From Candidatus Binatia bacterium (GTDB taxonomy: Bacteria; Desulfobacterota; Binatia; HRBIN30), in the NCBI GenBank assembly GCA_050015455.1, contig JBEKBJ010000002.1, forward strand, positions 1,091 through 65,090: 64,000 nucleotides of DNA, in the 5' to 3' direction. A program made the translations under genes and the position numbers. This document shows positions 8,332-43,734 of the stretch, piece by piece. Under the pieces are notes generated by a model. That model was not told the origin of the DNA. It searched no databases and saw only the letters and a program-made list of their open reading frames with translations. The stretch's first letter is position 1. Every line of letters begins with the position of its first letter.

Positions 8332-8383
8332 GGACGACGCGGGCCAACCTCGATCCCAACCGCGAGCGTGAGGAAGCGGCCAG

Positions 8384-8578
8384 CTACCGCGGCCGGCGCA
8401 TTTTGCGATAGTAGTCGCCGCGCTGCTTGCACAGCTGTTTGAGGCGTTCGTCGGCTTCGCGCGTGAGCCGCGACTTACGGTTCAAGAGGTGGTAAACACC
8501 CAGCAAGGCCGTCGCCAGTGCCAGCCCGGCGAAGGGATGATCCCCGAGGTACCGCACGACAACTTGGAACTGATCCAT
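8384..8578 (-). CDS. hypothetical small membrane protein (64 aa)
   Basis: One predicted TM helix (FAGLALATALLGVYHLL) followed by a basic tail. No family recognised. Could be spurious. Confidence 0.3.
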   Translation of the reverse strand: MDQFQVVVRYLGDHPFAGLALATALLGVYHLLNRKSRLTREADERLKQLCKQRGDYYRKMRRPR

Positions 8579-8694
8579 AGCGTTCCGCCGCTTCCATAGA
8601 GTAAGGCCGACAAGGGAGATCTACAAGGGCAAATTTTCTTCGTCGCGCGGTGCCGCTGCTGGGCGGGGTGCCATGCCGTTATTACTACATCGAT

Positions 8695-9582: not shown

Positions 9583-9723
9583 ATTCAGCCTCTCGTAGTG
9601 CGTCACACGGCCGAAACGTGTGTGGTCTCGACCCACTTGGATACATACACCGGCAGGCCGCAGATGTGTAGCGTCCCCGCCGAATCCGCTCTCGGACTTC
9701 TGCAGCGGACGCAACACCAGTTG

Positions 9724-10344
9724 TTACAAATGCCCGACACAGTCCAGCGCTTCCGCGTACCAGGCTTCGTGATCGCGCGCCAGAATATGGATCGAGCCGA
9801 GCGCAACACACAGCTGGCGACGGTGCACTTCGTCCACCCCGAGCAGCTCCGAGACAATGGAGCGGATCACGCCTTTGTGCAGCACGAACAGCAGCTCGCC
9901 CGTAGGCGCCTGCGCCAGGACTCGGTGCAGCGTGCGCGCCACCCGTTCATGGAAGTCACGGCTGGACTCGCCTCCGGGATACACGAATTCGCCATGGCGC
10001 ACTTGCCACTGCGCGTACAACGCCGGCTGCCGCTCCCGGATCTGTTCGGCGGTGAGCCCCTCCCACTCACCAAAATCGATCTCGTCGAACCCGGCCAGTG
10101 GCGTCACCGGCTGCGCACCGCCGGTAACGATCCGCGCCGCCTCGGCGCTGCGCGACAATGTGCTGCTGTAAGTGGCGACAAAGCTTTGCGAGATCAAGGC
10201 GCCGCGCACCCGTTGCATCTGGGCGCGCCCGAGTTGGCTCAGCGGCACGTCGGTGCGGCCGTAGTAACGGATGCTCGATTCGCCCTCGGTCTCACCGTGG
10301 CGCACGAGCGTCAGGCGCGTCGGCTCGCCGGCGCGTCGGCTCAC
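9724..10344 (-). CDS. histidine phosphatase family protein (phosphoglycerate mutase-like / CobC-like)
   Basis: LVRHGETE catalytic RHG motif, second His in FVLHKGVIR, ~200 aa. The GTG start overlaps the stop of the upstream HD gene by 4 nt. Confidence 0.8.
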   Translation of the reverse strand: MSRRAGEPTRLTLVRHGETEGESSIRYYGRTDVPLSQLGRAQMQRVRGALISQSFVATYSSTLSRSAEAARIVTGGAQPVTPLAGFDEIDFGEWEGLTAEQIRERQPALYAQWQVRHGEFVYPGGESSRDFHERVARTLHRVLAQAPTGELLFVLHKGVIRSIVSELLGVDEVHRRQLCVALGSIHILARDHEAWYAEALDCVGHL

Positions 10345-11630
10345 CTGCGTGCCCCCACCTGGTGCTCGCTCGGATAGCCGAAGATCTCACGGGCCGCCGC
10401 TGCTGTACGTCCCGCCACCGCCTCCGGTACGAACACGTACAGGCGCCAGAGGCCGGCGTAGCGCGCTTCCAACGCTTGGATTTCGGAACTTGGCTGGCCG
10501 TCGACGACGTTGAGCGAATGGATCCCCTTCGGCGTCCGCACCAGAACCGCAGCCTCCTTCATCACCGTCATAGCGGGACAGTAGAGGATGACTTCCGAGG
10601 GCTCGCACCCGGTCTCGCGCGCCAATATCTCTTCGGCCTCGCGCCGATTGTGCGCCGATTCGTGGAAGCGTTCGACCAGCCCTCGCCGCTCCTCCGCTGG
10701 CACCGTCAGCGGCGAGATCACGTAGCCGCGCTTGAGCAGCGCGCGCCGCTCCAGGCGGTCCGCCAGGCCGGCGATGCGCGGGTCGGGAAGCGCCGCTGTG
10801 GGAATCTTATGCAGTCGTTGCAGCAGCGTCCAGTCGTTGAGCCGCAAGAGCTCGTCTTCATCCAAGGCGCCGTGTTCCCGCGCCAGTTCGACCGCTTTGG
10901 AGATCATCGCACCGGATGTGACTTTGGCGTGGTGGTAGTAGACACGTTCGGTGAGGAAGTAGCGCAGGCGCAGAAGCTGCACAGTTTCGGAACGGGCGTC
11001 CGGCCGCTCCATACCGTGCTTCGTCATGTCGACTACCAGTTGACCGTCTTCGACGCAGAAGTAACGAAAAATGCGGTCATCGTAGCTTGCCGCTAGGCCG
11101 GCAAAGTACGCATCGCGCCGCAGGTAGTCGAGCAGGTCCGCGTCGACGGTGCCGGCGACCACCTCGCGTGCCCAGGGCGGCACGGCCGCCGCACTCGCGG
11201 GCGCCCCGAGCAGCGCCGCCAGCGGCTCTCTGAGTCCAAGCGCCTCCAGGAGCGCCCCCAATCGGCCGGCAAACAACTTCACCAACCGCGTGCCCTTGTC
11301 GTGCCGCGGAAACAGACGGCGCTCGTCCTCCAGCGTGTGCCCGAAGGGCACGTGAGTGACGTCATGCAGCAACGCCGCCACCCCGATCAGTTGCTCCAGC
11401 TGCTGGTCCACTGCCGTGCCCGCGTCCCGTACGGCGGCGATGATCCGCTTGCTGAGCGCATTCACACCGAGCGAGTGATCAAAACGCGTATGCAGGCACC
11501 CCGGATACACCAGGCTGGCGGTGCCGAGTTGTTTGATGCCGCGCAGCCGCTGCAGCTCCGGTGAATCGAGCACCTCCTCCTCGACCGGGTCGAGGGAGAT
11601 GTCACCGTGGATGGCATCGCGAATGAGCAT
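10341..11630 (-). CDS. HD-domain phosphohydrolase (dGTPase-like)
   Basis: RFDHSLGV HD motif, LLHDVTHVPFGH, ~430 aa, typical of dGTP triphosphohydrolase-like HD proteins. ATG at 11630; the ORF-track GTG is at 11639. Confidence 0.8.
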   Translation of the reverse strand: MLIRDAIHGDISLDPVEEEVLDSPELQRLRGIKQLGTASLVYPGCLHTRFDHSLGVNALSKRIIAAVRDAGTAVDQQLEQLIGVAALLHDVTHVPFGHTLEDERRLFPRHDKGTRLVKLFAGRLGALLEALGLREPLAALLGAPASAAAVPPWAREVVAGTVDADLLDYLRRDAYFAGLAASYDDRIFRYFCVEDGQLVVDMTKHGMERPDARSETVQLLRLRYFLTERVYYHHAKVTSGAMISKAVELAREHGALDEDELLRLNDWTLLQRLHKIPTAALPDPRIAGLADRLERRALLKRGYVISPLTVPAEERRGLVERFHESAHNRREAEEILARETGCEPSEVILYCPAMTVMKEAAVLVRTPKGIHSLNVVDGQPSSEIQALEARYAGLWRLYVFVPEAVAGRTAAAAREIFGYPSEHQVGARR

Positions 11631-11760
11631 AGCACCCACGATACCCTTGCCGGCGGCGCTCGTCGAACCGCGGCGGCCGTGTTCCTATGACCTCATTCGA
11701 CAGGTTTCCTCTTCCTTCGACTCATTGCTGGCCGCTCTCCCCTCAGGTAAGGTCCGGCCG

Positions 11761-12633
11761 ATGCTCGACCTACTGAATCGGATCGCTGGGATGCTCGTGC
11801 TGCGGCCGTACGTGTTCGTGTTCTTCGCAGTGTATCTGGTCGCGGCGGTGAGCAAGATGGGGTGGAAGAAGACGCTGGTGTTCACGCTGCTCGCTTATAG
11901 CGTAGCCTTTGCCGCGGAGTTTTCATCTACACGGACGGGATTCCCGTTCGGCCTTTACCACTACGTGGACACCACTCGCGATCGCGAGCTGTGGATTTCC
12001 AACATTCCGTTGTGGGATTCTCTCTCGTTCACTTTCCTGTGTTACTTGGGCTTCAGCTTGGCGGTGCTGACGTACTCGCCGTTACTAATCCGCCGGGGCG
12101 ATATGCAAGTTGTGGACGCCTGTGAGATCCGCGAGTCCCGCCGCGTCCTGGTCACCGCGACGATGTTGGTGACGCTGATTGACGTGGTGATTGATCCACT
12201 CACGGTACGCGGCGATCACTGGTTTCTGGGCAAGATCTACTATTACCCAATTGCCGGCATCTACTTCGGCGTGCCCATCAGCAATTTCATCGGCTGGGCT
12301 ATGGTTAGCGCGATCACCATTTCTCTGTTCCAGTGGTTCGAGCGCCGCCAGTGGCTCAGCTCCGACCGGGTGCGGCCCGCCGGCGTGCGCCATCTGCCGT
12401 TCGCTGGTCTCATCGAGCCGCTTCTGTACCTGAGCGTGCTGCTGTTCAATGTCATCCTCACCTTCGTCATCGGCGAGAGTCTATTGGGCATCATCGCCGT
12501 CATGATCTATCTGCCGGTCGGTGTGTTGTTCACCGCGAACTTCATCGATCCGCGCCGACGGGCCGATGCAACGCAGCTGGCCACGCACCGCTACGACTTC
12601 CCGCACTCGCCGATCACTGCACTATGGGGTTGA
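11761..12633 (+). CDS. polytopic integral membrane protein (family uncertain; carotenoid-biosynthesis-associated membrane protein-like)
   Basis: About 290 aa with 7-8 predicted TM helices. Start re-picked at the first ATG after the convergent HD gene ends (the ORF-track start at 11521 overlaps that gene). Confidence 0.45.
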   Translation: MLDLLNRIAGMLVLRPYVFVFFAVYLVAAVSKMGWKKTLVFTLLAYSVAFAAEFSSTRTGFPFGLYHYVDTTRDRELWISNIPLWDSLSFTFLCYLGFSLAVLTYSPLLIRRGDMQVVDACEIRESRRVLVTATMLVTLIDVVIDPLTVRGDHWFLGKIYYYPIAGIYFGVPISNFIGWAMVSAITISLFQWFERRQWLSSDRVRPAGVRHLPFAGLIEPLLYLSVLLFNVILTFVIGESLLGIIAVMIYLPVGVLFTANFIDPRRRADATQLATHRYDFPHSPITALWG

Positions 12634-12655
12634 GTGAGCGGCCGCATCCTCACGC

Positions 12656-14161
12656 CTACGGGAGAACACCGGTGTGGCACTCACTGCAGTTCATCTCTTG
12701 CCACGCGCCGCCGATGTCCTCGGGATGCTCGAACGTCAGCCCCCCTGGCTCGGTGGAATACGCGAGCTGCTCGCGCTTCCCTTGCGCCAGAATGATGTGG
12801 CACGCTCCGCACTCCTTGGTGATGATCTTCCCGCCGGCGTTCTTATGCGATCCGTCGTGGCAACGGTAGCAGCCGGAGAACACGAGGTGGCCGACATTAT
12901 CCGGGTAGATGTCCCAGCGCGCCTTCATCCTGGGGAAGAAGTTCTCCCCGTAGATTTCCTGCACTGCGGCGACGGCATGCGCGATCGCGTCGCCTCGAGT
13001 CCGCAGCACCTCGGGGTATTTATCACGGTAGAACTCCGTCACGCCGGCGTCGATGGCGCCCAGCGCCGCCTCGGTGGACTCGTACGTTGCTGCCAGCAAC
13101 TCCACGGCGGTGCGCTTGATGAACGGCAGCGTCGCATCGATCCTACCCGTATCCATCGCGAGATTCACCGCGTAGCTCGGTGACTGGAGAATGTGGGTGG
13201 GGCGGTCATGGCAGTCCATGCAGTCCATTGTCCGGATCTGCGCGCGCGAGACCTCTTCCTCGGAGAGGGGGGCGTCGGTGGAAACGTATTCGGCAACCTC
13301 GCCGGTCTTCAAGTTGGTCATGCGCACCCAGGGTATGTGCTGCCGCTGTTTGTCGGTGGCGATGTACTCCAGGCGATTGGCGATGTTCATGTGCCAGTGA
13401 ATCCCTTCGGTTTGCCCGGTCGTCGGGCTGCCACCGCCGGTCTTGATGAGCAGATTGATTTCCCAGCGCGTGTTCTGCTCGTCGGGGAGAAAATGCACGA
13501 GCTGCTTTTGTTGGCCTCCGAAGAATTGCTTGGGCCAGTGGCATTGCTCGCAAGTCTGCTGCGCCGGGCGCAGGCTGTGGATCGGCGCCGGAATCGGGCG
13601 TGGATACTTGTTGAGCGTGACCGCATACACTTGATACATGCCCGACAGCTTAGATTTGACGTACCAATCGGCTCCGGCACCCACGTGGCAGTCGACGCAG
13701 CGGACCCTCGCGTGGGGCGAGTGTTGGTAGGTGGTGTACTCCGGCTTCATCACTTGGTGACACAGCGCTCCACAGAAGGTCACGGATTCGGTGGATTCGT
13801 AGACTCCGTAGCTGCCAAAGACGGTCAGGAAGAGTAGGAAAACCGAGCCGATGATGAAGACCACCGTCGCGTTGCGGTACCCCGGATCGTTCAGATCGAT
13901 GACTGGAAATCGCAGGATGGACGCGGTGCCCGTTCGCGTAAAGTGCCGGCGTTCGATGAGCATACCCACTGGAATGAGCAGCAGACCGAATAGCAAGACA
14001 GCAGGCACAAGGACGAAGATGAGTAAGCCAGCATAGGGGGCCTGAGCAGCGCCCGTCGTCGTGTGGAGAATCACCAGGAAGCCGAACACCAGCAGCGCCA
14101 ACGTAGAGATCGTAGCGCCCACGTAGCTGACGCGGTTATGAACAAGCTTGGGGAAGATCAT
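12656..14161 (-). CDS. membrane-anchored multihaem c-type cytochrome (7 haem motifs; ImcH/NapC-NirT-like)
   Basis: Two N-terminal TM helices, then six CXXCH motifs (CVDCH, CEQCH, CMDCH, CYRCH, CGACH, CSECH) plus one CX3CH (CGALCH). The ATG overlaps the stop of the upstream PEP-utilising gene (ATGA at 14158-14161). Confidence 0.85.
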   Translation of the reverse strand: MIFPKLVHNRVSYVGATISTLALLVFGFLVILHTTTGAAQAPYAGLLIFVLVPAVLLFGLLLIPVGMLIERRHFTRTGTASILRFPVIDLNDPGYRNATVVFIIGSVFLLFLTVFGSYGVYESTESVTFCGALCHQVMKPEYTTYQHSPHARVRCVDCHVGAGADWYVKSKLSGMYQVYAVTLNKYPRPIPAPIHSLRPAQQTCEQCHWPKQFFGGQQKQLVHFLPDEQNTRWEINLLIKTGGGSPTTGQTEGIHWHMNIANRLEYIATDKQRQHIPWVRMTNLKTGEVAEYVSTDAPLSEEEVSRAQIRTMDCMDCHDRPTHILQSPSYAVNLAMDTGRIDATLPFIKRTAVELLAATYESTEAALGAIDAGVTEFYRDKYPEVLRTRGDAIAHAVAAVQEIYGENFFPRMKARWDIYPDNVGHLVFSGCYRCHDGSHKNAGGKIITKECGACHIILAQGKREQLAYSTEPGGLTFEHPEDIGGAWQEMNCSECHTGVLP

Positions 14162-26759: not shown

Positions 26760-28073
26760 TCATGAGCCGCCACGAACGGCACGCACGTAGAAGTTGTTGC
26801 TCTTAAAGTTGTAGCTCACGTGGCCGTCGTAGAAGCTCACGGTCCACGCGTAGCTTGGACTGGGCTGGTAGGTAGTGGACGACCAGTAGCCGTAGTAGTA
26901 GCCGTAGTACCAGTAGTAGTAACCGCCTGTACAACTGCAGGCTGCGCTCGTAATATCCGTACAGCCGGCTCCACAGCTCGCCCCATTGAACGCCGGGGCG
27001 ACGGAGGGATTGCTCGTCGCGCTGTCAACGAGGCTTTGCAACTCCCGGAGGTTCGGGATGCGCCAATCGTTGTGCCTAGCGAAGCTCGCCGTGTTGAGCT
27101 GCGCGACCCATTTGAAGATCGTCAGCCCATCGGGAGAAGCCGTCTGGCAGTCCGCCGCCTGACACGGTCCATTGGCCTCACAATCCGCATCCGTCCCGCA
27201 GGCTACTCCGCCCGGCCCACAGGTCCCCGACCACGGGTAACAATTGTCCGCGTCCTCCAGGTTGGCTGCGTTCACAGTCCCGTCGAGCACGTCCTTTTTC
27301 TCCCACGTGAGCCCGGTGTTGTTGTCGGTAATCGTGCCGTCGCCGTTGTCGGTGTACGCCAGAGCCACGCCTTCCTGCAGAGCTCCGTCTTGCCCCGTCC
27401 CAGAGCAGGCAATGACGTATCCATTGCCGTCCCAGCAGATCGTTTGCCCTGTTTGTAACAGCTGCGCAGGGGGCAGGGCGCCGCCCTGCCCCTGGCACGT
27501 CGCGAGATTCGCTTCGCAGGTAGCGAGCGGAATGCTTGCACAGTTCGTTTCACAGGCGCTCAGGCTCGTGTCGCACGTGCTCAGGTTCGTGTCACACGTG
27601 CTCAGACTCGTCTCGCAGGTGTTGTAGTAATCTTCATAGCTCGTGAGGTTGCTGTTGCAGTCGTTCAGATAGTCTTGCAGCGTCGATGGATCGCAGTCTG
27701 CTGCCGGTGTTCCACCAGCGAGATTGCCGCTCAGGCAGCTGGTGAAATCCGTTATCGTGCTTTGCACTGTTGACTCATCGCCGGTAGTCGGGCACGCACT
27801 TTTCGCGTTCGCCGCCGCCGTTTCCAGATTGCCCCACTGCTTGCTCAGCGTCGTCTGGCACTTGGTAATCGCCGTGTCGTACGTCGTGGCGTCGTTATTC
27901 AGTACGAACGCCTTGTTAGCCGTCTGCCGGCAGGCCGTGTACTTGCCTGCCGCATTATTCTTACCGGCCTCACACTTCTGCGGTGGCGTCGTTTTGCCAA
28001 ACGCCGTCCCGGTGCACAGCAACGCGGCGCACACCGCTGTCATCGTCACAATGGTCCTCGCTATCCGTGTCAT
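26760..28073 (-). CDS. secreted DUF1566 (Lcl C-terminal domain) protein with Cys-rich N-terminal modules
   Basis: ATG at 28073 with a GGAGGG Shine-Dalgarno. Signal peptide MTRIARTIVTMTAVCAALLCTGTAFG. C-terminal DUF1566 signature (HNDWRIPNLRELQSL ... YWSSTTY ... AWTVSFYDGHVSY...FYVRAVRGG). The N-terminus carries a 13-spaced Cys pair (CEAGKNNAAGKYTAC) like the giants' C-terminal module, plus a TCxTxLSxC mini-repeat. Confidence 0.75.
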   Translation of the reverse strand: MTRIARTIVTMTAVCAALLCTGTAFGKTTPPQKCEAGKNNAAGKYTACRQTANKAFVLNNDATTYDTAITKCQTTLSKQWGNLETAAANAKSACPTTGDESTVQSTITDFTSCLSGNLAGGTPAADCDPSTLQDYLNDCNSNLTSYEDYYNTCETSLSTCDTNLSTCDTSLSACETNCASIPLATCEANLATCQGQGGALPPAQLLQTGQTICWDGNGYVIACSGTGQDGALQEGVALAYTDNGDGTITDNNTGLTWEKKDVLDGTVNAANLEDADNCYPWSGTCGPGGVACGTDADCEANGPCQAADCQTASPDGLTIFKWVAQLNTASFARHNDWRIPNLRELQSLVDSATSNPSVAPAFNGASCGAGCTDITSAACSCTGGYYYWYYGYYYGYWSSTTYQPSPSYAWTVSFYDGHVSYNFKSNNFYVRAVRGGS

Positions 28074-28256
28074 GAAGTAACCCTCCGAGACTGTGGAAGC
28101 TGGTTGGGCTTCAGCGACCTGCCACAAGGCACTGTGAACGGGGTCCCTCGCACATTTGCGTAATACTGTACGCTAAGAACCCGCCCCACCGTTCTCCATA
28201 GCGTGCATTTCCACATCCCCCGTAAGCATCACTCGTACGCGCTTCGCCGCGGCAGC

Positions 28257-31200
28257 TCACGGCGCGGGAAGAGGGGTAGTTCCGGCGCAGTAAATTTGGC
28301 CGTCGCTGGTCTGATCGATGAAGCTGATCATCGCATCGGCCAGCGCGCCCTGGGCCGTCGCATCGAGACAGGACGGACAGATCAACGCCTTCTGCTTGTT
28401 CACCGTTGCCGTCTTGGCGAGCACCGCCGCTTGCGCCTTGTCGTACGCGGCGCGACAGGAGGTCGGCGTGCCGCTTCCCTCTTCGCACGCTTGGACATTG
28501 AATGACTTGCTCTTGAGTGCCGCGTCAGCATCCTTTTTCTGGCAGCTGGTGATGCATCCCGCCAGTGTTCGCAGATTTCTGGAGACCGTGTCTTCACACG
28601 CACCGGTGTTCTTGTCCGGCGGTACGTATCCCGGGTTGCCACTCGGGAAACCGGCGGTGCCCGCGCAGTAGATTTGGCCGTCGAGCTGCTCCACGACGCT
28701 CATCGCCGACTCCGCCAAGGCGGTCTGCGCCGTGGCACCCAAACAGCTCGGGCAGATCGGCTGCTTTACCCCCTTCACCCTCACTGTCCTCGCAAGCACC
28801 GCCGCTTCCGCCTTGTTGTACGCGGCGAGGCAGGAGATCGGCGTGCCGGTTCCCTGCTCGCACGCCATTTCGTCAAAGGATTTGTTTTGCAGCGCGTAGT
28901 CAGCCTCCTTCGTTTGGCAATTGGCCGTGCAGACTACGAGTTTCTTTATGTTCTTCGCGACCGTATCTTCGCAGCTATCCGCGCTGGAATTGGGAGGCAC
29001 CATAGCCTCCGGCGTGTACGTTGGGGTCGGCGTGTTGGTCGGCGTCGCGGTCGCTGTCGGGGTGACTGTCGGGGTGTTGGTGATGGTCGGCGTTTGAGTC
29101 GGCGTGTTGGTAATCGTCGGCGTCTGCGTTGGCGTGTTGGTAATCGTCGGCGTTTGCGTCGGTGTATTGGTAATCGTCGGCGTCTGCGTTGGCGTATTGG
29201 TGATGGTCGGCGTTTGCGTCGGTGTATTGGTAATCGTCGCCGTCCGGGTCGGGGTGTTCGTGATCGTCGGGGTTAGGGTCGGGGTGTTGGTGATGGTCGG
29301 CGTTTGGGTCGGGGTATTGGTGATGGTCGGCGTTTGAGTCGGCGTGTTGGTAATCGTCGGCGTCCGAGTCGGGGTGCTGGTAATGGTCGGCGTCTGCGTC
29401 GGCGTGCCCGTTGGGGTGTTGCTGGCCGTCGGCGTCGGGGTGTTCGTCCGCGCGTTGGTCGGGGTGGCGGTTGCGGGGCTTGCGGGTGCGGGTGTGGGCG
29501 TGGCCGCCGCCGAGTTCGCCTCGAAGGCGCCGATGGAGCAGTTGGTGGCACCTGTACCGGGCCGGACGAAGCCGCGTTGGTCGAGGTTGTCCACGGGCGC
29601 GGTACCGGTGGTCGTCGAACAGACGCTCTCGTTGCCGGCATTGATCGCGGGGCTCGCCCCCGTGCATCCCGCGCTGGGGGCACCTGTGCCTGTACAGAGG
29701 GCGACCGTCTGCGTTGGGCCGCCGTTGCTCTGGCGCCCGGTGGGGTCGAGAACAGGGTTCGTGTTACAGAACGAGCTGCCGCTGGTAGTGGTGCAGCCGG
29801 TGCCCGTGAAACCACACGTCGTGCCGTCGTCGATGTTGTGGCCGCCATCAGTCACGGGACCGGCGCAATTGCCGCCCGAGCTGCTGGCGACTATCGTGTT
29901 GATGGCCGTCACGGTGCCGCCGTCGTTCTGGATAGCGCCGCCGCCCGTGCCCGCGCTATTGCCGGCGAAGGTGCTGTTGGTGACGGTCAGCGTCCCGCTG
30001 TTGGAGATGCCGCCGCCGCTGTCGGTCGCACTATTGCCGGAGAAGGTACTGTTGGTGAGCGTCAACGTGCTGCCGCTGTTATTGTTGATGCCGCCGCCGT
30101 AAGCGCTCGCGCTATTGCCGGCGAAGGTGCTGTTGGTAACCGTCAGCGTGGCGCCGTAGTTATTGTAGATACCGCCGCTGTAGCTCGAGCTATTGCCGGA
30201 GAAGGTGCTGTTGGTGACCGTCAGCGTGGCGTTGTTAAAGATGCTGCCACCGTAGTCTGCCGCGCTATTGCCGGAGAAGGTGCTGGTGGTGACCGTCAGC
30301 GTGCCGTTGTTGGTGATGCCGCCGCCGAAGGCGCCGGAGATATTGCCGGAGAAGGTGCTGTTAATGAGCGTCAGCGTGCCGTTGTTGGTGATGCCACCCG
30401 CGGCGCCCGCGTCATAGCCCTTGGCGATGGTCAGGTTCTGAACCGTGAAGTTGACGCCAGAGTTTACGGAGAAGACGCCCACCTTATTCCCGCCGCTGAT
30501 GGTGATCAGACTCCCACCGTCAATGGTCGTGTCGGTGCCAATAGTTTTGGTGCCGGTGACGGTGATCGTGGCGGCGCCGCCGCAGTTGAAGGTCACGTTA
30601 TGGCCGAAACTCCCGCCGCCGGGGAGGCAGGCAGTCAGCGCCGCCTCAGTGCAGCTCGTCCCCGTGCCGGTGCCCACCACGCACGCCGGGGCCGCTGTGG
30701 GTGTTGGCGGCGCGGTCGGCGTTATGGTGGGTGGCGTCGCCCCCATTGCCGCCAGCAGATTCCCTGCATCGGGGCTACCAAGACCGGTCACCATGTCGTA
30801 ACCGACGCCAGCGCTGTACGCGCCGTTCGAACCGCTGGTGATGTCATGGAAGGCGGAGCTGCCACACAACCCGTACAGCAGCGCACCCGGATTCCCGAGG
30901 CCACTGCCACCAACTCCCTCGTTCAAATCAGCGAACAAGCCGGCCCATTGTGGCGCCGCGTCGGAAGTGCCGCCGACGATGTACCACCCGAAGTCGAACG
31001 CAAGGTAGTTGCCGGGGGACGGATTGGCTGCCAAGGCCACATCGGGCACCAAGCGCTGGGTTCCGCTTGGCACGGCGCATCCGGTTTGAAACGCGGGGCG
31101 TGAAAACACCTGACTGATGCCCCCGCCCGAGCCGCTCCAACCGCTCTCAGAGCCGTATCCGCCACAGCCCGGGCTCGAGGAGGTCATGCCGCCGCTGCAG

Positions 31201-32348
31201 CTCGGCGTGGTCCCGCCAACTCCCATCACGTGCGGAGAATTGGCCGGATGATCCAAACAATTGCTCCCGTTGTCACCAGACGCAGCGAACCAGGTCTGCC
31301 CAATCGCGTTGGCGTTGGCGAAGATGCCGTCATTCGTTTGCTGCGTGGCCGCGGACGTGCCCGCTTCACAGCTTCCCCAGCTCGTGGTGACCACGTGGCC
31401 GGGGTTGTCGGTCACGATGCGGTTGTACAGCGTGGTGAAATCCGACAACGCGCTCGAGGCCGCCATGTAGTTGAGAATGACGGCGCCCGGTGCGGTGCCG
31501 TGCGCGTACTCAACGTCCAAGGAAACCTCGTCGGAGGGGTTGTTGAACGTACAACCGCTGGACCCAATCGCGCCAGTGCACACCTGGCCACTGCCACTCG
31601 GCAGCGCGGGCAGCCCCCATTGCGAGTCGAATGTGGCGACATCGGTGTCCAACCACGCGTAGGCTCCCGCGATCACCAGCGTCTGGCCCGCCCCCGCGTA
31701 GGTGCCGCCGTTGTCGTAGAATACCGCCAGGTCGTTCGGACTCAGGGCGCAGCAGTACGATCCGAACGCGGCACCGGGGGCGAGCGCGGGTTGTGTGCTC
31801 CGGCGGACGTTCGTGTGCATGCTGACGAGATCATCCAGACCGAGGATGCCCACGACGTCGCCGGCGATCTCGGCTGGCCACGTGGGTTCGTTGATGGCCG
31901 CGTAGTGTGTCTCCCCCCCGAAGATCACTCGGTAGGACTCCACGCCAAAGGCGTGTTCGAGCGCCGCAACACCGCCGACCGCTCCAACCAGCAGCCGATT
32001 GGAGAAGCGGTCGGTTACGGTAAAACCGTTGCCTGCGAGGTAGTCCACCACACCCTGCTCTGCATCGGCCGCCGGCGCATAACGGGCGTTGAATTCGTCT
32101 TGGGTCAGGAACTGACCGTATTGCGGGGAGTCAGGATTCTGCACCTCGGCGAGAAACCGTTCCAGGTCATCGCGATTTCTGAGCTCGAGGCCAACGACGA
32201 TGCTATGGCGAGTGGCGGGATGTTCGCGTTCCAGGATTGTCGCCTCGCCGAGGCGGGGGGACGTTGAATGTGCACGAGCGTACACGGGCGCTTGCAACCC
32301 CAGCGCTAGCAGTACGCCCGTCACCACGCTCGCAGCATTGATCCTCAT
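28257..32348 (-). CDS. giant secreted multidomain protein: signal peptide - propeptide/S53 sedolisin peptidase - CSLREA/Pmp-type beta-helix - Thr/Pro tandem-repeat linker - 2x novel 8-Cys C-terminal module
   Basis: 1363 aa. Signal peptide [25 protein letters not shown]53 motifs [10 protein letters not shown] (oxyanion Asp) and [14 protein letters not shown] (catalytic Ser). CTEAAL... followed by NSTFSGNSA beta-helix repeats. [10 protein letters not shown] repeats encoded by 30-nt tandem repeats. Tandem C-terminal modules [19 protein letters not shown]...ICPSCL...DGQIYCAGT. Confidence 0.85.
29060..29400. repeat. perfect/near-perfect 30-nt tandem repeat array (~10 units) encoding the [10 protein letters not shown] linker
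   Basis: Units such as ggcgtgttggtaatcgtcggcgtctgcgtt repeat head-to-tail inside the CDS. Confidence 0.8.
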
Positions 32349-32614: not shown

Positions 32615-35600
32615 CTACGGCAGTGGGACGGTCCCCGCGCAGTAAATTTGGCCGTCGCTGGTCTGACCGATGAAGCTGATCATCGCGTTGGCCAGCGCGC
32701 CCTCGGCCGTGGCATCGAGACAGGACGGACAGATCGCCACCTTCTGCCCGTTCACCGTTGCCGTCTTGGCGAGCACCGCCGCTTCCGCCTTGTCGTACGC
32801 GGCGCGACAGGAGATCCGCGTGCCGGTTCCCTCGCACGCTCGGACATCAAATGTCTCTTTCTTGAGCGCCGCGTCAGCCTCCTTTTTTTGGCAGCTGGTG
32901 ATGCATCGCGCCAGTGTTCGAACATTTCTGGAGACCGTGTCTTCACACGCACCGGTGTTCTTGTCCGGCGGTACGAAGCCCGGGTTACCACTCGCGAAAC
33001 CGATCGTGCCCGCGCAGTAGATTTGGCCATCGAGTTGGTGCACGACGCTCGTCGCCGAGTCCGCCAAGCCGTTCTGCGCCGTGAGGCCCAGACAGGCCGG
33101 GCAGATCGGCACCCTCTTCTTGTTCACCGTTGTCGTCCGCAAGAGCACCGCCCATTGTGCCTCGTCGTACGCGGCGCGACACATTCCCTCGCACGCCATT
33201 TCGTCAAAGGATTGGTTTTTCAGCGCGTAGCCGGCCTCCTTCGTTTGGCAATTGGCCGTGCAGACTACGAGTTTTTTTATGTTCTGCGCTACCGTATCCT
33301 CGCACGTATCCGTACTGGAATTCGGGGGCACCATGGCCTCCGGCGTCGCCGTGGGTGTGGGCGTTGCCATCGGCGTCCCTGTTGGGGTGTTGGTCGGCGT
33401 CGCAGTTGGTGTTGCCGCTGGGGTGCTCGTCGGCTCGGCGCATACCCCGCCGGCACACGTTCCACTGCGGCATTGGGAGCCGGCGGTGCAGCTCGTTCCA
33501 TCGTTGCAGTCATTGGTCTGCCCGCAGCACGAGTTGCTGTCGCAGGCGCCGCCGGTGCATTGCGACGCGCTCGTGCAGCCCGACCCATCACCGCAGTTGG
33601 CGATGCAGGCTGCGGCGTTCGCCTCGAAGGCGCCGATGGAGCAGTTGATCGCGCCCGCACCGGGCCGGACGAAGCCGCGTTGGTCGAGATTGTCGACGGG
33701 CGCGGTGCCGGTGGTCGTCGAACATACGCTTTCGTTCCCATTGTTGATCGCTAGGCTTACTCCGGTGCACGAGGCAGGAGAACCCACGCCGGTACACAAA
33801 GCGATGGTTTGGGTCGGCCCACCGTTATCTGCCAAACCCGCCGGATCGAGCATCGGGTCGAACGCACCGATGGTTGTGCCACACGTCGTGCCGGGGAATT
33901 GCAGGTTGTGGCCGCCGTCAGTGATGCCGCCGCCACCGATGCCACTGTCGGCGCAGCCGCCCGCCAGGATGGTGTTGATGACGGTTGGCGGCGTGGTTCC
34001 CAGGTCGGTGGCGATGCCGCCGCCGCTATTGCCGGAGAAGGTGCTGTTGGTGATCAAGGTCGAGCCCTGGCTGAAGATGCCGCCGCCGGAGCCCGCGCCA
34101 TTGCCGGAGAAGGTGCTGTTGGTGACCGTCACCGTGCGCTGGTTGTAGATGGCGCCGCCGACGTAGACCGCGCTATTGCCGGAGAAGGTACTGTTGGTGA
34201 CCGTCAGCGTGCCCACGTTGAGGATGCCGCCGCCGCCGTTGCCGGTGCTAAGCGAGCTATTGCCTGAGAAAGTGCTGTTGGTGACCGTCACCGTGCCACC
34301 TCCGATGAGGATGCCGCCGCCGGAGCCCGCTGATCCGTTGGCGATCGTCAGGTTCTGGACCGTGAAGTTGGCGGCAGGCACGGAGAAGACGCCCACGCTG
34401 TTCCCGCCGCTGATCGTGATCAGACTCCCGCCGTCAATGGTGGTGTCGGTGCGAATGGTCTTGGTGTAGGTGACAGTAATCGTGGCAGCACCCCCGCAGT
34501 CGAAGGTCACGGTGCCGCCGCCGAGGAGGCAGGTGTCCAGCGCGAACTCGGTGCAGCTCACCCCCGTGCCGGTGCCCACGACGCACGCCAGGGCGCGCGT
34601 CGGTGTTGGCGTTGCGGTTTCGGTCGGGGTGTTGGTCGGCGTCCGGGTCGGTGTATTGGTCGGTGTGGCCGTCGGGGTGTTGGTTGCGGTTGGTGTCTGA
34701 GTCGGGGTCTTGGTCGACGCCTGGGTCGGTGTATTGGTCGGTGTGGGCGTCGGGGTGTTGGTCGCGGTTGGTGTCTGAGTCGGGGTGCTGGTCGACGTCT
34801 GAGTCGGCGTGCTGGTTGGCGTCACCGTCGGGGTGGTCGTCAGGGTCGCGGTGGGAGTCGCGGTTGCGGTTGGCGTCGCGGTTTCGGTCGGCGTCGGGAT
34901 CGGGGTGGCCGGGCTGAGCTCGGCCACGAAGGCGTTCGATCCGCCGTTGGCGGCAGCATTGTTGGTGCTCTGGAAGGCATTCAGGGTGGGGAAGTTGTTC
35001 GACCACGCAAAGCCCGTGACGTAGGCGTTGCCGGAGGAATCGACCGCGATGCCGTTGCCATAGTCCCAGAAGCTTCCGCCCAAGTAGGTCGAATAGAGCA
35101 GCGATGCCGCTCCCGACGCCGATGGGTTGAGCTTGGCCACGAAGGCTTCGATTTCGCCGTTGTAGCTCAAGCCGTTCAGGGTGGGGAAGTCGGGCGAGGC
35201 GGTAGATCCCGTGACGTAGGCGTTGCCGGAGGAATCGACCGCGATGCCGTGGCCAGAGTCGCCGTTATTGCCGCTGCCGCCGAGGTAGGTTGAATAGAGC
35301 AGCGACGCCGCTCCCGACGCTGACGGGTTGAGCTTCGCCACGAAGGCGGTACCAGCGTTACTATCGCCGGCGTCGGGGACGTTGTTGGTGCTTTGGAAGG
35401 CGTTCAGGGTGGGGAAGTTGGCCGAGGCCGTATTTCCTGTGACATAGGCGTTGCCGGAGGAATCGACGGCGATGCCGTAGCCATAGTCGCCACGAAAGGC
35501 CGGGCCAAAGCCTTGGAAGCCTTGGCCAATGTTGCCGCTGCCGCCGAGGTAGGTCGAATAGAGCAGTGACGCCGCTCCTGACGCTGCCGGGTTGAGCTTG

Positions 35601-37687
35601 GCCACGAAGGCGGTATACGCGTTATCGGGGCTGGCGTTGGCGGCGGCATTGTTGGTGCTCTGGTAGGCGCCCGCAGTGACGGGGAACGCAACGCACGTGC
35701 CGGTCCCGTTCCCGGTGCAGCAATAAGCAGGTGTGTCGGAGCCGGTACAACTGGAGTTGCCGATCGAGGTCGTCCATCCCGTGACGTAGGCGTTGCCGGA
35801 GGAATCGACCGCGATGCCGGTGCCAGAGTCGTAGACGCTGCCGCCGAGGTAGGTCGAATAGAGTAAGTCCGCCGCGCCTGTTCCCGCCGGGTTGAGCTTG
35901 GTCACGAAGGCGTTCTCGGTGGCATTAAGCGTGCTCTGGAAGGCGTTCAGGGTGGGGAAGTCGGCCGAGCCCGTATATCCTGTGACGTAGGCGTTGCCGG
36001 AGGAATCAACCGCGATGCCGTTGCCAGAGTCGTACACGCTGCCGCCGAGGTAGGTCGAATAGAGCAGTGATGCCGCTCCTGACGCCGACGGGTTGAGCTT
36101 GGCCACGAAGGCGTTAACAAGGCCGGCGTTGGTGCTCTGGAAGGCGCCCGCAGTGACAGGAAACGCCATGCACGTGCCGGTTCCCGCCCCAGCGCAGCAA
36201 GTCTGAGGTACGCCCGAGCCGGTACAACTGGAGTTGCCGATCGAGCTCGTAACTCCCGTGACGTAGGCGTTGCCGGAGGAATCGACCGCGATGCCGTAGC
36301 CAGAATCGCCGCCGCTCCCGCCGAGGTAAGTCGAATAGAGCAGCGATGCCGCTCCCGACGCCGACGGGTTCAGCTTGGCCACGAAGGCGTTACCAAGGCC
36401 GGCGTTGGTGCTCTGGAAGGCGTTCAGGGTGGGGAAGTTGGTCGACTCCGTATATCCTGTGACGTAGGCGTTGCCGGAGGAATCGACCGCAATGCCGGTG
36501 CCATAGTCGCCGTCGCAGTTATATTCACCACAGAAGACGCCGCTGCCGCCCAAGTAGGTCGAATAGAGCAGCACCGGATCGATCACAATCGGCTTGCTCC
36601 GGTCGTAACTCGCCAGCTTAAAGCCCGCCTCGTCCGCGCCCCGGATCACCCATCCGCCCGCGATCGTTTGCTCCTTGCCGCCTGTAGTCTCCTGATAAAT
36701 CTCCGGCGCGTGCTCGATGAGTTGGTTCTTGCCCGCGCTCACGACCAGATCGCCCCGCTTATTCAGCGCGAGCTTGCGGACGCCCTTGAAGCTGAGCCGG
36801 ATCGCTTTCGGATCGGCGCCCGGCGCAAGCCGGAAATCGTACTCAAGCCGGGCCTGCTCGCTGCCGTGGTAGATGAGATCGATTCCGGGATAGACCTCCT
36901 TGAGCTCGACCTTGGCGTAGTTGGGAACATCGGTGTGCCACTGCTTGGGGTCGTTGCCGATGAAATAGTTGGACTTGCCCACCATCCGCTCGAGGCCGCC
37001 GATTTGCGACGCGCGCGCCGCCCCCTTGAGCGCGATCCGCACCACCGCCGCCTCCGCCTCAGCAGCTTTTTTCCTGTCATTCCTGCGTGTGGCTGCCGCG
37101 CGAGAGCCTGTCCCTTCGACAAGCTCAGGGCGGGCTCTGAGGCCGCCGAAGGAAATCCCCGATGCGGGCCCCCTCGACTTCGGAGACTTCACTCGCGATG
37201 ACTGAAAAGAATCAGGGCGACCGGGGAAAAAAGAGTGTGCGCCTTCCGGCGCGGGCGACCGCATCGCAATCACCGCCTCGCCGGGCGTGATGAACAGCGT
37301 GTAACCCTGCCCGTGCGATAGGAACTTGACCCGCGGATCGCTCTGGCCGAGGTTCGGCTCGAAGCGCATCGGCAGCTTTACGAGCGATAGGTGCGGCGGA
37401 CGATTCGGCGCGGAGGGCGCGTGCGACCGTCTGCGTCGGCCCGCCGTTGTCCTGGAGCCCGGTGGGGTCGAGAACGGCTCTTCTCCCAGCTGCTGACCGC
37501 CTGGCTGCTGTGCACCGGGCGGCGCACGGTGACCGACACGCTGCGCTGTCAGTGTGCGGGACGGACAGGTTTCACTGCCAGTGCCCACGACACACGCCAG
37601 GGCGCGCGCGGGCAGAGTGAGACATGGCAGGAGCAGAGCCAGCCCTAAGCCGCTGCATCGCAGTTGACCGCCGAAACGTGTGCTCAT
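32615..37687 (-). CDS. giant secreted multidomain protein: signal peptide - SBBP beta-propeller repeats - Thr/Pro linker - CSLREA/Pmp-type beta-helix - Cys-rich knot - linker - 2x novel 8-Cys C-terminal module
   Basis: About 1690 aa from the ATG at 37687 (signal peptide [31 protein letters not shown]). About nine SBBP-type repeats ([34 protein letters not shown]). A beta-helix region starting SCTEFAL. A CX-rich segment [30 protein letters not shown].... The C-terminal ~700 nt is ~90% identical to the 3' end of 28257-32348. Confidence 0.85.
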
Positions 37688-38185
37688 CGGGCACCTCTTT
37701 TCCACCGATATCTCCCAGACAGGCCGCTGCCCGGCGTGTGTGGTTGGCAAATCGAGGCTCGCACGCTTGCCCCCGACGAGACCGTCGTATCCCGCGTGCA
37801 GGCCACCGGACGTCATCCGAGGCCGATCATGTTGACATACGGTCGCGGTGATTACACCCTACACCCTGTGGCGTCAACCAAAATCGTCACAGTGGCCGTA
37901 CAAATCACGCAAGAGATGACCAATGTCAGTGTGGACTCCGTAAACTTACGGAGTTTTGACCTCACAGACGGTCACCATCCTTCCCCCGTCCTTCCTCCCG
38001 AATCGCAATCACCGTCATCGGCGCAGCGGATCGGTGTCGCCAGAGCCGTCATCTCCGACTTTGAGGACGACGACTTCGAGGGCGACGCGCTCGGGCTCCT
38101 CCAATGGATCGCTGGCGCACTCGACAAGACCGTCGAGATCTGCGTAATGCCGCGGAAGACCAAGCGGCACGCCGCGTGAGCAGTC

Positions 38186-38253
38186 CACCGATCGTCTCTG
38201 CGGACCCGCGCAGTCGGAATCTACGGCTTTGTCAGCACTCGGCGATCAAACCG
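38186..38253. repeat. 68-nt dispersed direct repeat, copy A (overlaps the GH108 stop codon)
   Basis: caccgatcgtctctgcggacccgcgcagtcggaatctacggctttgtcagcactcggcgatcaaaccg. Second copy at 43914-43980. Confidence 0.75.
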
Positions 38254-38773
38254 CCACCGTATCCGTCCCAATGCCGGCCCGCACCGTCTGCACTCGGTTG
38301 AGCCAGCCCTTCAGGAACCGCGACTGGTCAGGCCGGGCCTCTACAATCTCTCGGTAGAACTGCGCCCGTTCGTTACAGAGCGCTTGGGCGAGTTGCGCCG
38401 GGTCGCGGGCGGCGACTGCTGCGAGAGTACGAGGTCCGATAATGCCGTCCACTGCCACCCTGACCGCCGCCTGGAGAAGACGCGCCGCGCGCGCCACGCC
38501 CACATTCACGCAGGAATCGAAGTGGACGGCATCGAGCGGCTCACGCAGGTCAGCACATTTTCCTGGGATCCAGTACTGGTCGTAGTAGATGCGCCGGACC
38601 TCATCGTCCGTGATGTTGGCCACCGATTGCGGCAGGGCATCGATCGACGCCCGAAAACGGTCGTACGTGGCTTGCGTGATCCCCTGGTTGGTGGCGCCGC
38701 CCCGGTCGGCCGGATCGTCGACGAATCCCCCCTCCAGATCGAGCGTAAGCGCCAAAGCCTTGTCGAAGCTCAT
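38246..38773 (-). CDS. GH108 N-acetylmuramidase with C-terminal peptidoglycan-binding (PG_binding_3) domain
   Basis: LTLDLEGGFVDDPADRGGATNQGITQATYD is the GH108 catalytic signature. 175 aa, the typical two-domain lysozyme. No signal peptide. Confidence 0.85.
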   Translation of the reverse strand: MSFDKALALTLDLEGGFVDDPADRGGATNQGITQATYDRFRASIDALPQSVANITDDEVRRIYYDQYWIPGKCADLREPLDAVHFDSCVNVGVARAARLLQAAVRVAVDGIIGPRTLAAVAARDPAQLAQALCNERAQFYREIVEARPDQSRFLKGWLNRVQTVRAGIGTDTVAV

Positions 38774-41083: not shown

Positions 41084-42841
41084 TCACATACTCTGCTGAA
41101 CCTCCGCCTCCGCCCTGTCAGCATCCTGCTGTTGCTGGTCGAGTTGAACCGTGGCGTCTGTGTCCGGCTGTGCCTGGCCTTCTTCTACCGGCCTTGGATC
41201 CGCAGGCGGACCGCTCACCATTCCATTCTTGCCTTGATTGTCCGCGAGCGTCTGAAGCCCCGCGTCAATCTTCTGCCGGAAGTCGTTGTGCATGTCCTGC
41301 AGATCCTGCAGGGGCAAGGCGAGTTGCGTTCCGGGCTGGCAGTCATTGGTCTGGCTGCTCGTGACCAGTACCTGGACGTTTTGATTCGCATCGGGTGTAT
41401 TCGCGATCCGCGTCAGAACGTCGCCGGAGGAGAGGGAACATGTCGTACCGTCAGCGGTTGGCTGGCTGAGTGTGTTCGAGACGATGAACGTCCGCACTTT
41501 GGGGTCGAGCGCTTCCGGTACCTGATCGTTGCTCGGTGCCGCTGCCGGCTGTGGGGGGTTGGCAGCGGCTTGTTCCGCTGCAAGCTGCACTTTCACCTCG
41601 TCGGCAATCGCCTGCTTCGTTTCCGGCGTAAGTGCGGCGCCATTGGCGTTCGTGTCCTTCGACACGTAGACCGCAGGAGCGGCCGCTTCCGCCTGGGCGT
41701 TGGCCGGTGCCTGAGCTTCGTAGCCGGCCCGCAGAGTTTCGGCGAGCAGGAAGTCCGTCAGCCAGAGCGCCGGGTACGGATACACGGGGTACGGCCTGAA
41801 GTAATATCCATAGTAGCCGTACCAAGGATCTGCGGCCCAACCCCATCGCCACGAGACCGGCACTGCCCACGGATTGTAGGCCCAGCCATAAAATGCGGGT
41901 GCGTAGTAGTAGGGCGGCACATAACCGTAGTAGGCGAGACCGCGGTAGTGATAGCCGCGATAGACAACCGCATAGGGGTGACCGCCGTACACGTACGTCC
42001 GCCTCATGTAGGGCCGTCCGCCATGCTCGAACGGACGTTCCACGAAGCCGCGGTGTGCTCCCACGACGACCACTCGGCCGCCGCCGCTGAGATGGGTCTC
42101 AACGATCCGGCCACCACGTGGGCCATGATTGATCACCATACCGCCGGAATGAATCGATCTCACACCGCCGTCGGCACCGAACCTCGCTTCTGCACCGCCG
42201 CGCGTCCTGAGGCTCGTCAGCTGGCCCTTGTTTCCCGTGTGGAATTCGCTGCCATTCGGGGCTTTGTAGATGGTACCACCCCTGTTGTCGCGCTTCGCTA
42301 TCGCGCCGTGCGGCGGAGTGAAAGGCTTGACCTGCCGTTGTTGGGGTGCGGCATGCTGTGGTTGCGGCGCGGCATGTTGTTGTGGCGCGGCTTGCCGTCG
42401 TTCGGGTGCGGCCTGGCGTTGTTGCGGTGCGGCCTGCCCTTTTTGCGGCGCGGCCTGCCGTTGTTGCGGCGCGGCATGCTGTGGTTGCGGTGCGGCGTGC
42501 TGCGGTTGCGGCGCGGCATGCTGTGGTTGCGGCGCCGCCTGCCGTCGTTCGGGCGCGGCCTGCCGTTGTTGCGGCGCGGCATGCTGTGGTTGCGGCGCGG
42601 CGTGCTGTGGTTGCGGCGCGGCGTGCTGTGGTTGCGGCGCCGCCTGCCGTCGTTCGGGCGCGGCCTGCCGTCGTTCGGGCGCGGCCTGCCCTTTTTGCGG
42701 CGCGGCGTGCTGCGGTTGCGGCTTCTTCTCCTTCTCCTTCTCATTGTTCTGAGCCCAGGCCGATCCTGAAACGACCAGCAAGGCCAGCACAAATGCAAGC
42801 CAATTCCTGGCGGTCTTATGCCCTGTTTGGTGGTATCTCAT
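41084..42841 (-). CDS. secreted low-complexity protein with ~20 PQ-rich heptad repeats and a Gly/Tyr/Trp-rich region
   Basis: ATG at 42841 (MRYHQTGHKTARNWLAFVLALLVVSGSAWA signal peptide). Repeats PQPQHAA / PERRQAA / PQQRQAA encoded by 21-nt tandem repeats. A G/R-rich stretch. An aromatic patch (YYGYVPPYYYAPAFYGWAYNPW). An acidic Q/A-rich tail. Confidence 0.6.
   Translation of the reverse strand: MRYHQTGHKTARNWLAFVLALLVVSGSAWAQNNEKEKEKKPQPQHAAPQKGQAAPERRQAAPERRQAAPQPQHAAPQPQHAAPQPQHAAPQQRQAAPERRQAAPQPQHAAPQPQHAAPQPQHAAPQQRQAAPQKGQAAPQQRQAAPERRQAAPQQHAAPQPQHAAPQQRQVKPFTPPHGAIAKRDNRGGTIYKAPNGSEFHTGNKGQLTSLRTRGGAEARFGADGGVRSIHSGGMVINHGPRGGRIVETHLSGGGRVVVVGAHRGFVERPFEHGGRPYMRRTYVYGGHPYAVVYRGYHYRGLAYYGYVPPYYYAPAFYGWAYNPWAVPVSWRWGWAADPWYGYYGYYFRPYPVYPYPALWLTDFLLAETLRAGYEAQAPANAQAEAAAPAVYVSKDTNANGAALTPETKQAIADEVKVQLAAEQAAANPPQPAAAPSNDQVPEALDPKVRTFIVSNTLSQPTADGTTCSLSSGDVLTRIANTPDANQNVQVLVTSSQTNDCQPGTQLALPLQDLQDMHNDFRQKIDAGLQTLADNQGKNGMVSGPPADPRPVEEGQAQPDTDATVQLDQQQQDADRAEAEVQQSM
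42330..42730. repeat. 21-nt tandem repeat array (~20 units) inside the CDS
   Basis: Units such as gttgcggcgcggcatgctgtg / gttgcggcgcggcctgccgtc repeat head-to-tail. Confidence 0.8.
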
Positions 42842-42977
42842 TTGATCCTCGCTTTCTGCCTGGTGCGCAACAATTGGTTGGAAAACGCTGAAGCATTGGA
42901 GCCCGGACGTGCTGTTGGTGCCCAAGTCCTTTCCTCAGGCAGTCCATCCATGGCTCTTGTCTCATAGCGTAACGCGA

Positions 42978-43281: not shown

Positions 43282-43734
43282 CTAGTGGCTGCACCCGTTC
43301 AGGGCGTCGTTCACGGCCGCAAGGATTTCGTCGACGGTGATGTACCCATCGTGGTTGGCATCTCCGGCATTGATCGCCGGGCTGGCCGTACTGCTCGTGC
43401 AGGACGCGTTGGGTATATCAATGCCGCCGCATAGCGCGATGGTTTGAGTAGGCCCGCCGTTGTTCTGGAGCCCGGTAGGGTCGAGAACAGGGTTCGTGTT
43501 ACAGAACGAGGTGCCGGTCGTGGTGGCGCAGCCGGTGCCCGTGAAGCCGCACGTCGTGCCGTCGTCGATGTTGTGGCCGCCATCAGTAACGCTGCTGCTG
43601 AACATGTCGTTCGCCCAATTGCCGCCCGAGGTGCTATTGGCGACGATCGTGTTGGTAAGCGTCAGCGGGCCGCCGTCGGTGTAGACGGCGCCGGCGTCGC
43701 CCGCGCTATTGCCGGAGAAGGTGCTGTTGGTCAC
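43282..43734 (-). pseudogene. 5'-truncated paralogue of the beta-helix/dockerin surface-protein family
   Basis: 150-aa ORF starting inside a beta-helix repeat ([20 protein letters not shown]...). It has the conserved [18 protein letters not shown]...[24 protein letters not shown]...PAINAGDANHDGYITVDEILAAVNDALNGC end. Similarity to the beta-helix repeats stops at about 43736, with no upstream signal peptide or enzymatic head. Confidence 0.55.

Follow-up and report, generated by a model that had tools for sequence, protein, structure and literature searches.

We analysed a 64-kb window of DNA from Candidatus Binatia (64,000 nucleotides of contig JBEKBJ010000002.1; G+C ~64%) in which two adjacent giant open reading frames (ORFs), here called G1 and G2 and both read from the minus strand, end in closely similar C-terminal tails. 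Each tail consists of two units of ~115 amino acids (aa) with eight cysteines per unit, referred to below as the 8-Cys module, and in each gene the stop codon follows a few residues past the last cysteine. G1 is identical in sequence to NCBI MGD0945938.1, which belongs to a Candidatus Binatia metagenome-assembled genome (MAG) and carries the JGI name 'kumamolisin'. Independent JGI and ENA assemblies yielded the two-gene G1-G2 locus on 7 contigs. The genes and their parts are listed here with the independent E-values (i-E) of the envelopes matched by a hidden Markov model (HMM) of the unit.

28257..32348, minus strand: G1, ORF of 1363 aa
29514..30692, minus strand: G1 beta-helix repeats and choice-of-anchor-Q body, aa 553-945, common to G2
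29013..29513, minus strand: G1 Pro/Thr-rich linker, aa 946-1112, from the translation
28641..29003, minus strand: G1 tail unit 1, aa 1116-1236, eight Cys; unit HMM envelope i-E=1.9e-44
28260..28628, minus strand: G1 tail unit 2, aa 1241-1363, eight Cys; unit HMM envelope i-E=1.1e-45; stop codon at 28257-28259
32615..37816, minus strand: G2, longest ORF 1733 aa, probable start at 37687
33617..34594, minus strand: G2 beta-helix and choice-of-anchor-Q body, aa 1075-1400, homologous to G1 29514-30692
32990..33334, minus strand: G2 tail unit 1, aa 1495-1609; unit HMM envelope i-E=5e-37
32618..32977, minus strand: G2 tail unit 2, aa 1614-1733; unit HMM envelope i-E=1e-42; ends YCAGTVPLP, stop codon at 32615-32617

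From its N-terminus, G1 encodes a Sec signal peptide, a head composed of a pro-kumamolisin activation domain (Pro-kuma_activ, aa 43-173, Pfam E=1.9e-23) and a sedolisin-type peptidase, the beta-helix and choice-of-anchor-Q body (choice_anch_Q, NF041518, aa 873-944, 28.6 bits against an NCBIfam cutoff of 25), a Pro/Thr (PT) linker and the double 8-Cys tail. A 75-nt tandem repeat lies within the body (nucleotides, nt; 29952-30395), and a 30-nt tandem repeat of 11.3 copies with 83% matches occupies 29068-29406 inside the linker (Tandem Repeats Finder). G2 begins with a signal peptide whose first residue is the Met at 37687, followed by DUF7948 (Pfam E=1.1e-56), SBBP beta-propeller repeats (E=1.1e-64, 7 stretches), a PT linker, the shared body (Beta_helix E=1e-10; choice_anch_Q, NF041518, aa 1320-1399, 33.9 bits against a cutoff of 25), a Cys-rich/PT linker and the double 8-Cys tail. 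The G2 linker ahead of the tail is far shorter than that of G1 and includes the Cys-rich stretch (aa 1401-1460). Other assemblies give G2 products of 1584 or 1476 aa, from a later start.

Pairwise alignment of the two tails gave 83% nt identity across 819 alignment columns, with similar values from BLASTN (82.6% over 817 nt) and from a codon-aware alignment (85.8% over 726 nt); the encoded proteins are 77% identical over 256 residues (tblastn E=1e-123). This similarity is far above chance or composition. The near-identical double tails described in the first-pass annotation are thus borne out by alignment, its two eight-Cys repeats per tail are confirmed by the translations, and the low identity or mere compositional similarity that it named as a refutation is not what we observed. 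Its figure of ~90% nt identity is accurate for unit 2 (90%) and too high for unit 1 (81%) and for the tail as a whole (83-86%), with sliding-window identities spanning 62% to 97%. G2 unit 1 retains all eight cysteines, and its C4-C5 loop is 7 residues shorter than that of G1 unit 1 (EGMC). Tblastn and an HMM search with filters off detected no further copies of the unit in the 64-kb window. The heads had been described as unrelated, which is correct for ~550 N-terminal aa in G1 and ~1075 in G2; the ~390-aa beta-helix and choice-of-anchor-Q body, however, is shared (52% aa identity over 397 columns, BLASTP E=1e-66). The antisense ORFs at 28318-28671 and 32670-33020, also singled out earlier, both exist as shadows of the conserved sense frame; as real genes they were rejected, such shadows arising in GC-rich coding DNA.

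The statement that the module matches no known domain withstood every search that we made. When the tails were scanned against Pfam and NCBIfam, with E allowed up to 10, only sub-threshold chance matches came back, and identity with a known domain was rejected on these scores (DUF7828, 19 bits against a cutoff of 25.7; YnfU zinc, 17 against 36). A profile built from 29 units gave no meaningful match to PDB sequences, a Foldseek search of the module model against the PDB gave no match at E<=1e-3, and full-text literature searches on choice-of-anchor proteins, Binatota and eight-cysteine helical bundles yielded no description of the module. Relatives, by comparison, proved numerous. A word-seeded search recovered 22 clusters, none of them named and none with a Pfam domain on the module, and an exhaustive profile search of 1.84 billion representatives recovered 586 clusters at E<=1e-3, of which 391 reached E<=1e-10 and 100 reached E<=1e-30. 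The 8-Cys module is therefore a family of about 586 clusters and is not peculiar to the G1-G2 locus. Overall, these results make it an uncatalogued domain family and a solid candidate for a new Pfam/NCBIfam entry.

The family is lineage-restricted. Among GTDB contigs (one genome per species), the 8 confirmed loci comprise 5 labelled Candidatus Binatia, 2 labelled as delta-proteobacterial MAGs and 1 labelled Margulisiibacteriota. No relatives were found in IMG/VR, and a phage origin was rejected on that ground. Several carriers may occur in one genome or contig, as in a MAG with 3 loci and in GCA_038245295.1 with 2. On a contig from another metagenome (L015, positions 1-12781, JGI 3300035696), three giant genes in a row, of >800, 2107 and 938 aa, each finish with the two-unit tail, and two of them have a beta-helix/choice-of-anchor-Q body; such tandem gene arrays are therefore a recurrent feature of related organisms. 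The superfamily may exceed the 586 clusters counted. Three distant members (P0103, P0125 and P0150) have an N-terminal pair of units without C2 and C5, the first unit also lacking C7 and having an extra cysteine before C1; after the pair come Ser/Thr-rich linkers and large uncharacterised C-terminal regions.

To describe the fold, we ran AlphaFold2 on the unit alignment with G1 unit 2 as the query. The resulting model (pLDDT, the predicted local confidence, 86; pTM, the predicted template-modelling score, 0.78) is a helical bundle with a long helix at residues 6-38, a short helix at 45-50, a helix at 58-70, a beta-hairpin at 73-82 and a final helix at 90-108. The hairpin is an inserted element, seen mainly in the clade to which the window belongs. 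A model of the unit pair had a pLDDT of 76 and a pTM of 0.65. The cysteines are spaced C-x13-C-x3-C-x18-C-x9-C-x16..25-C-x2-C-x26-C, with neither CC nor CXC.

Across 292 complete units from 188 proteins, all eight cysteines are present in 194, exactly C2 and C5 are missing in 67, and other patterns are rare. Presence and absence are correlated for C2 and C5 (r=0.99), C3 and C4 (0.66) and C1 and C6 (0.52). Co-loss of this kind provides strong support for a predicted C2-C5 disulfide and moderate support for putative C3-C4 and C1-C6 disulfides. Cysteine numbers that are even, with loss in pairs, are consistent with an oxidised extracytoplasmic domain and not with a metal site. A heme or metal site at C2-C3, where many members read CxxxCH, was considered and rejected: the histidine is replaced by Q, E, D or R elsewhere, including in this window, and C2 is dispensable in 67 units. 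We conclude that the module is a folded, probably disulfide-bonded domain of ~110 aa.

In being small, secreted and helical, with disulfides predicted to be nested, the unit resembles saposin-like proteins (SAPLIP), plant eight-cysteine-motif proteins and fungal CFEM domains. SAPLIP domains have six cysteines in nested connectivity within a four- or five-helix fold of ~80 aa, and their nesting follows the same logic as the C1-C6, C2-C5 and C3-C4 pairs predicted here. The plant motif (non-specific lipid transfer proteins and 2S albumins) contains CC and CXC and CFEM has a spacing of its own, whereas the 8-Cys unit has neither CC nor CXC and no Pfam match.

The position and number of units were tabulated for the first 164 members fetched. 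Two units are present in 132 and one in 32; the module ends no more than 12 residues from the C-terminus in 139, follows directly on the signal peptide in 20 and is internal in 5. Termination is strict in genomic DNA, where the last unit lies no more than 3 residues from the stop codon in all 13 distinct copies in which it is complete. Members whose N-termini were inspected start with a Sec-type signal peptide, and 21 of 65 members have a P/T/S-rich stretch ahead of the module. The heads of 56 longer members include SGL, Vgb_lyase, Kelch, FG-GAP and NHL propellers, EGF, TSP1, cupredoxin, M35 protease and beta-helix domains, and the same Pfam scan found no family covering the module itself. G1 adds an S53 protease to the head types that carry it. 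The module is thus terminal, usually paired and portable, and it occurs on heads of extracellular type.

A subfamily of ~250-aa secreted proteins consists of a signal peptide and two units. These pair-only proteins usually end in YCASPSGAFLD, and their mature N-terminus, TPFGGDDTGFVPPD, is the same sequence that joins the units internally. They include P0054, P0021, P0057 and P0083 and, among genomic loci, L016 and L018, with a conserved end of YCASPSGAFL(D/E). One pair-only gene adjoins a gene for a DsbH-like thioredoxin and another a sulfatase gene, with no consistent neighbour; more broadly, neither 11 loci nor the surroundings of the stand-alone members revealed a conserved neighbour or partner gene. 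Polymorphic toxins, another class of modular secreted proteins, keep an N-terminal part for trafficking conserved while their C-terminal toxin cassettes are hypervariable, and an immunity gene comes next (PMC3482391). Here the polarity is reversed, the C-terminus being conserved and the heads variable, and there is no conserved downstream gene.

We compared five genes, namely G1, G2 and the three from L015, to reconstruct how the tails evolved. The same tail stands on at least these five genes with differing heads in two metagenomes. Units group by position: copies of unit 1 share 81-91% nt identity and copies of unit 2 share 86-92%, compared with 63-69% between unit 1 and unit 2. Since the two units within one gene are ~66% identical at the nt level, with a synonymous divergence (dS) of about 1.0-1.2, the internal duplication is old. 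The tail is also the best-conserved part of the five paralogues (76-83% aa identity, against 52-66% for the beta-helix/choice-of-anchor-Q body), the heads being unrelated or only partly related.

Between G1 and G2, dS rises from 0.15 in unit 2 through 0.35 in unit 1 to 0.55 in the body, and synonymous differences number 12/87 sites in unit 2 against 99/253 in the body (Fisher p=9e-6). The lower synonymous divergence of the tail places its ancestry more recently than that of the body and is therefore evidence for segmental exchange. Recent conversion specifically between G1 and G2 is unsupported, however, because the L015 tails are equally close (unit 2 of G1 and G2 is 88-91% identical at the nt level to L015, as near as G1 is to G2, at 90%), because support from the mosaic test is weak (52 nt as the longest identical run; permutation p=0.026) and because dS is not near zero. 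The earlier suggestion of recent gene conversion or module shuffling accordingly survives in its second half, the same tail on different heads, and not in its first. Together, these data support cassette exchange within the paralogue family. A 1462-bp JGI metagenome contig (P0001) is an exact chimera in which unit 1 matches G2 and unit 2 matches G1, the switch falling inside the perfectly shared 52-nt stretch; it could be either a natural recombinant or an assembler path switch.

Related debris and other genes lie around the two giant genes in the window.

26760-28127, minus strand: secreted Lcl_C (DUF1566) protein, directly downstream of G1
38246-38773, minus strand: glycoside hydrolase 108 and PG_binding_3 protein (lysozyme/endolysin-type), just upstream of G2
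41084-42925, minus strand: 613-aa ORF with a signal-anchor-like start, long QAAP(Q/E)(R/P)-type repeats and a Tyr/Gly/Pro/Trp-rich block
43282..43734, minus strand: truncated paralogue, 150-aa ORF with beta-helix repeats and a choice-of-anchor-Q-like motif

The 43282-43734 ORF ends in an EF-hand/dockerin-like loop, DANHDGYITVDEILAAVNDALNGC, where the 8-Cys tail would stand (EF-hand_1 E=0.004, below the Pfam threshold). It aligns with the choice-of-anchor-Q motif of G1 and has 53 nt at 87% identity to a remnant at the 5' end of G2. Lack of a signal peptide and in-frame stops upstream suggest a pseudogene or truncated paralogue. The 5' end of G2, from the signal peptide to DUF7948, holds two remnants, at 37423-37475 and at about 37559-37603. 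One copies the start of the beta-helix cassette; the other (53 nt, 37423-37475) is 91% identical to the G1 choice-of-anchor-Q motif and is read out of frame. Together they look like the fossil of a deleted beta-helix/choice-of-anchor-Q gene fused to the G2 head. The protein encoded at 26760-28127 has a Cys-rich N-terminal half with a short repeated motif, CETSLSTCDTNLSTCDTSLSACETNC, and did not match the 8-Cys unit HMM. The 41084-42925 ORF had no Pfam match.

As to function, the architecture of the carriers leads us to favour, tentatively, the proposal that the tail has no catalytic role and serves in targeting or retention, keeping secreted proteins of many kinds at a shared extracellular partner. 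Cargo would leave via Sec, and the tail would be oxidised and then fold in the periplasm or outside. There it would bind its partner, which might be an envelope or matrix component of the producing cell or a shared ligand; a component of the cell's own envelope or matrix would be the most plausible. Proteases, propeller proteins and adhesin-like beta-helices could thereby be held at one place. The tail pair behaves as a portable cassette, joined via low-complexity linkers to many unrelated secreted heads in Candidatus Binatia, and the near-identity of the two tails reflects exchange of the cassette through recombination among paralogous genes together with purifying selection, not a unique recent event between neighbours.

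Retention is consistent with the placement of the tail. The name choice-of-anchor-Q implies that a C-terminal anchor or sorting signal is expected after the domain, and the signals recognised for choice-of-anchor proteins include PEP-CTERM, LPXTG and the C-terminal domain (CTD) of type IX secretion (T9SS), among others. Both G1 and G2 bodies, which are right-handed beta-helices, score above the curated cutoff of NF041518; this likeness concerns the body and not the 8-Cys module. The tails contain no recognised sorting signal in Pfam or NCBIfam at E up to 10 and no terminal hydrophobic helix. The retention proposal fits because the 8-Cys tail comes directly after the choice-of-anchor-Q domain and because a paralogous body in the window bears an EF-hand-like tail instead. 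The module likewise resembles dockerins, S-layer homology (SLH) domains and carbohydrate-binding modules (CBMs), which are non-catalytic, duplicated or in tandem, and joined through Pro/Thr linkers to one or the other end of varied extracellular enzymes, and which tether their cargo to a scaffold, the cell wall or a substrate. We found no relationship to them in sequence or fold, and the 8-Cys module differs in its eight conserved cysteines.

Several observations weigh against the retention proposal or the model beneath it. The ratio of nonsynonymous to synonymous divergence (dN/dS) among tails is 0.3-0.8, rather high for a strongly constrained binding module. AlphaFold confidence falls across the last ~12 residues, C8 included, and the putative C7-C8 disulfide is assigned by elimination only. 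The argument that the tail would fill an anchor slot is drawn from the meaning of an NCBIfam family name. Finally, strict termination a few residues past the last cysteine would also fit a C-terminal secretion signal.

A rather unlikely alternative is that the double tail is a substrate-binding, CBM-like module that holds secreted enzymes on an environmental polymer or particle and not on the cell. CBM-bearing enzymes classically combine a PT linker with a non-catalytic module at the terminus, and the PT-rich linkers ahead of the module, its position at either terminus, its tandem copies and its source in a soil lineage all agree with this. The heads, on the other hand, are mostly not polysaccharide-degrading enzymes, the module matches no CBM family in Pfam, and an all-helical disulfide bundle is, to our knowledge, not a usual CBM fold.

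A second alternative is that the double module is a C-terminal secretion or sorting domain, read by a dedicated outer-membrane export or attachment machinery and maybe removed afterwards. In its favour, 85% of members end no more than 12 aa from the C-terminus, with the stop almost at once after YCAG(T/S)xP(L/F)P; the cargo is diverse and has Sec signal peptides; carriers are many and scattered within a genome; and the module is placed behind a choice-of-anchor domain. The type IX CTD (Por_Secre_tail) offers a close parallel, being a conserved C-terminal domain of ~100 aa that is found on many unrelated Sec cargoes, is restricted to a lineage and occurs on many proteins per genome. That CTD is a Bacteroidota beta-sandwich, however, whereas the 8-Cys module belongs to Binatia and is modelled as a disulfide-rich tandem pair, helical but for one short hairpin; no CTD profile in Pfam or NCBIfam matched the G1 and G2 proteins or their tails. 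The type IX CTD is also exclusively C-terminal, in contrast to the 8-Cys module, which can be N-terminal, internal or alone. A module at the mature N-terminus in 20 of 164 members and a sizeable pair-only subfamily would make little sense for a pure export tag, and the tails have no hydrophobic helix or cleavage-type motif. The type IX CTD occurs together with PorU/PorV-type machinery in the genome; beside the 8-Cys genes, no machinery gene is conserved. We therefore judge this explanation unlikely.

Distinctly improbable, in our estimation, is a protein-protein assembly module analogous to dockerin, in which fused tails would dock on each other or on stand-alone pairs to build multi-enzyme surface complexes. 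The module is tandemly duplicated, terminal and attached by linkers, the family contains stand-alone secreted pairs, the inter-unit confidence of the pair model is moderate (pTM 0.65), and a paralogous body in the window has a dockerin/EF-hand-like tail, all of which could be accommodated by such docking. Against it, no partner gene is co-located, the tails have no dockerin or EF-hand match in Pfam, and the unit alignment contains no DxNxDG-type or other calcium-binding loop.

The last alternative, which attributes the similarity to an assembly artefact, to composition, or to a very recent duplication or conversion that involved only G1 and G2, draws on the P0001 chimera (a repeat that can confuse assemblers or does recombine) and on the 52-nt run with its permutation p=0.026, but is largely refuted by recovery of the locus on 7 contigs from independent assemblies, by family-level protein similarity with conserved cysteines and motifs, by equally similar tails in another metagenome, and by a dS between the G1 and G2 tails of 0.15-0.35 and not zero.

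Returning to retention at an extracellular partner, one extension, which we consider unlikely, is that the double 8-Cys tail might be the cargo tag of an unrecognised, Binatota-specific system for cell-surface sorting or attachment, with the stand-alone pairs as its scaffold or competitor and with its machinery genes at other places in the genome. Were this true, the system would match the T9SS CTD or SLH anchoring in function, with a tag that is helical and disulfide-stapled. If the tail is an anchoring or sorting tag at all, the few types of surface-targeting signal listed for bacteria would gain a new one.

We rate the 8-Cys module as an uncatalogued domain family in the familiar role of a promiscuous terminal accessory module, a role suggested by the architecture of its carriers. 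Its compact helical scaffold, with four disulfides predicted from the sequences and a confident AlphaFold model, is one that no solved structure clearly resembles, and the G1-G2 locus is a clean example, from nature, of giant modular genes exchanging a cassette. Binatota are a globally distributed phylum with no cultured member and are thought to be important in methylotrophy and alkane turnover (PMC8262859). A domain that marks hundreds of secreted proteins provides a handle on the surface and secreted proteome of Binatota from sequence alone, in a phylum for which we know of no account of how cells display or retain the proteins that they secrete.

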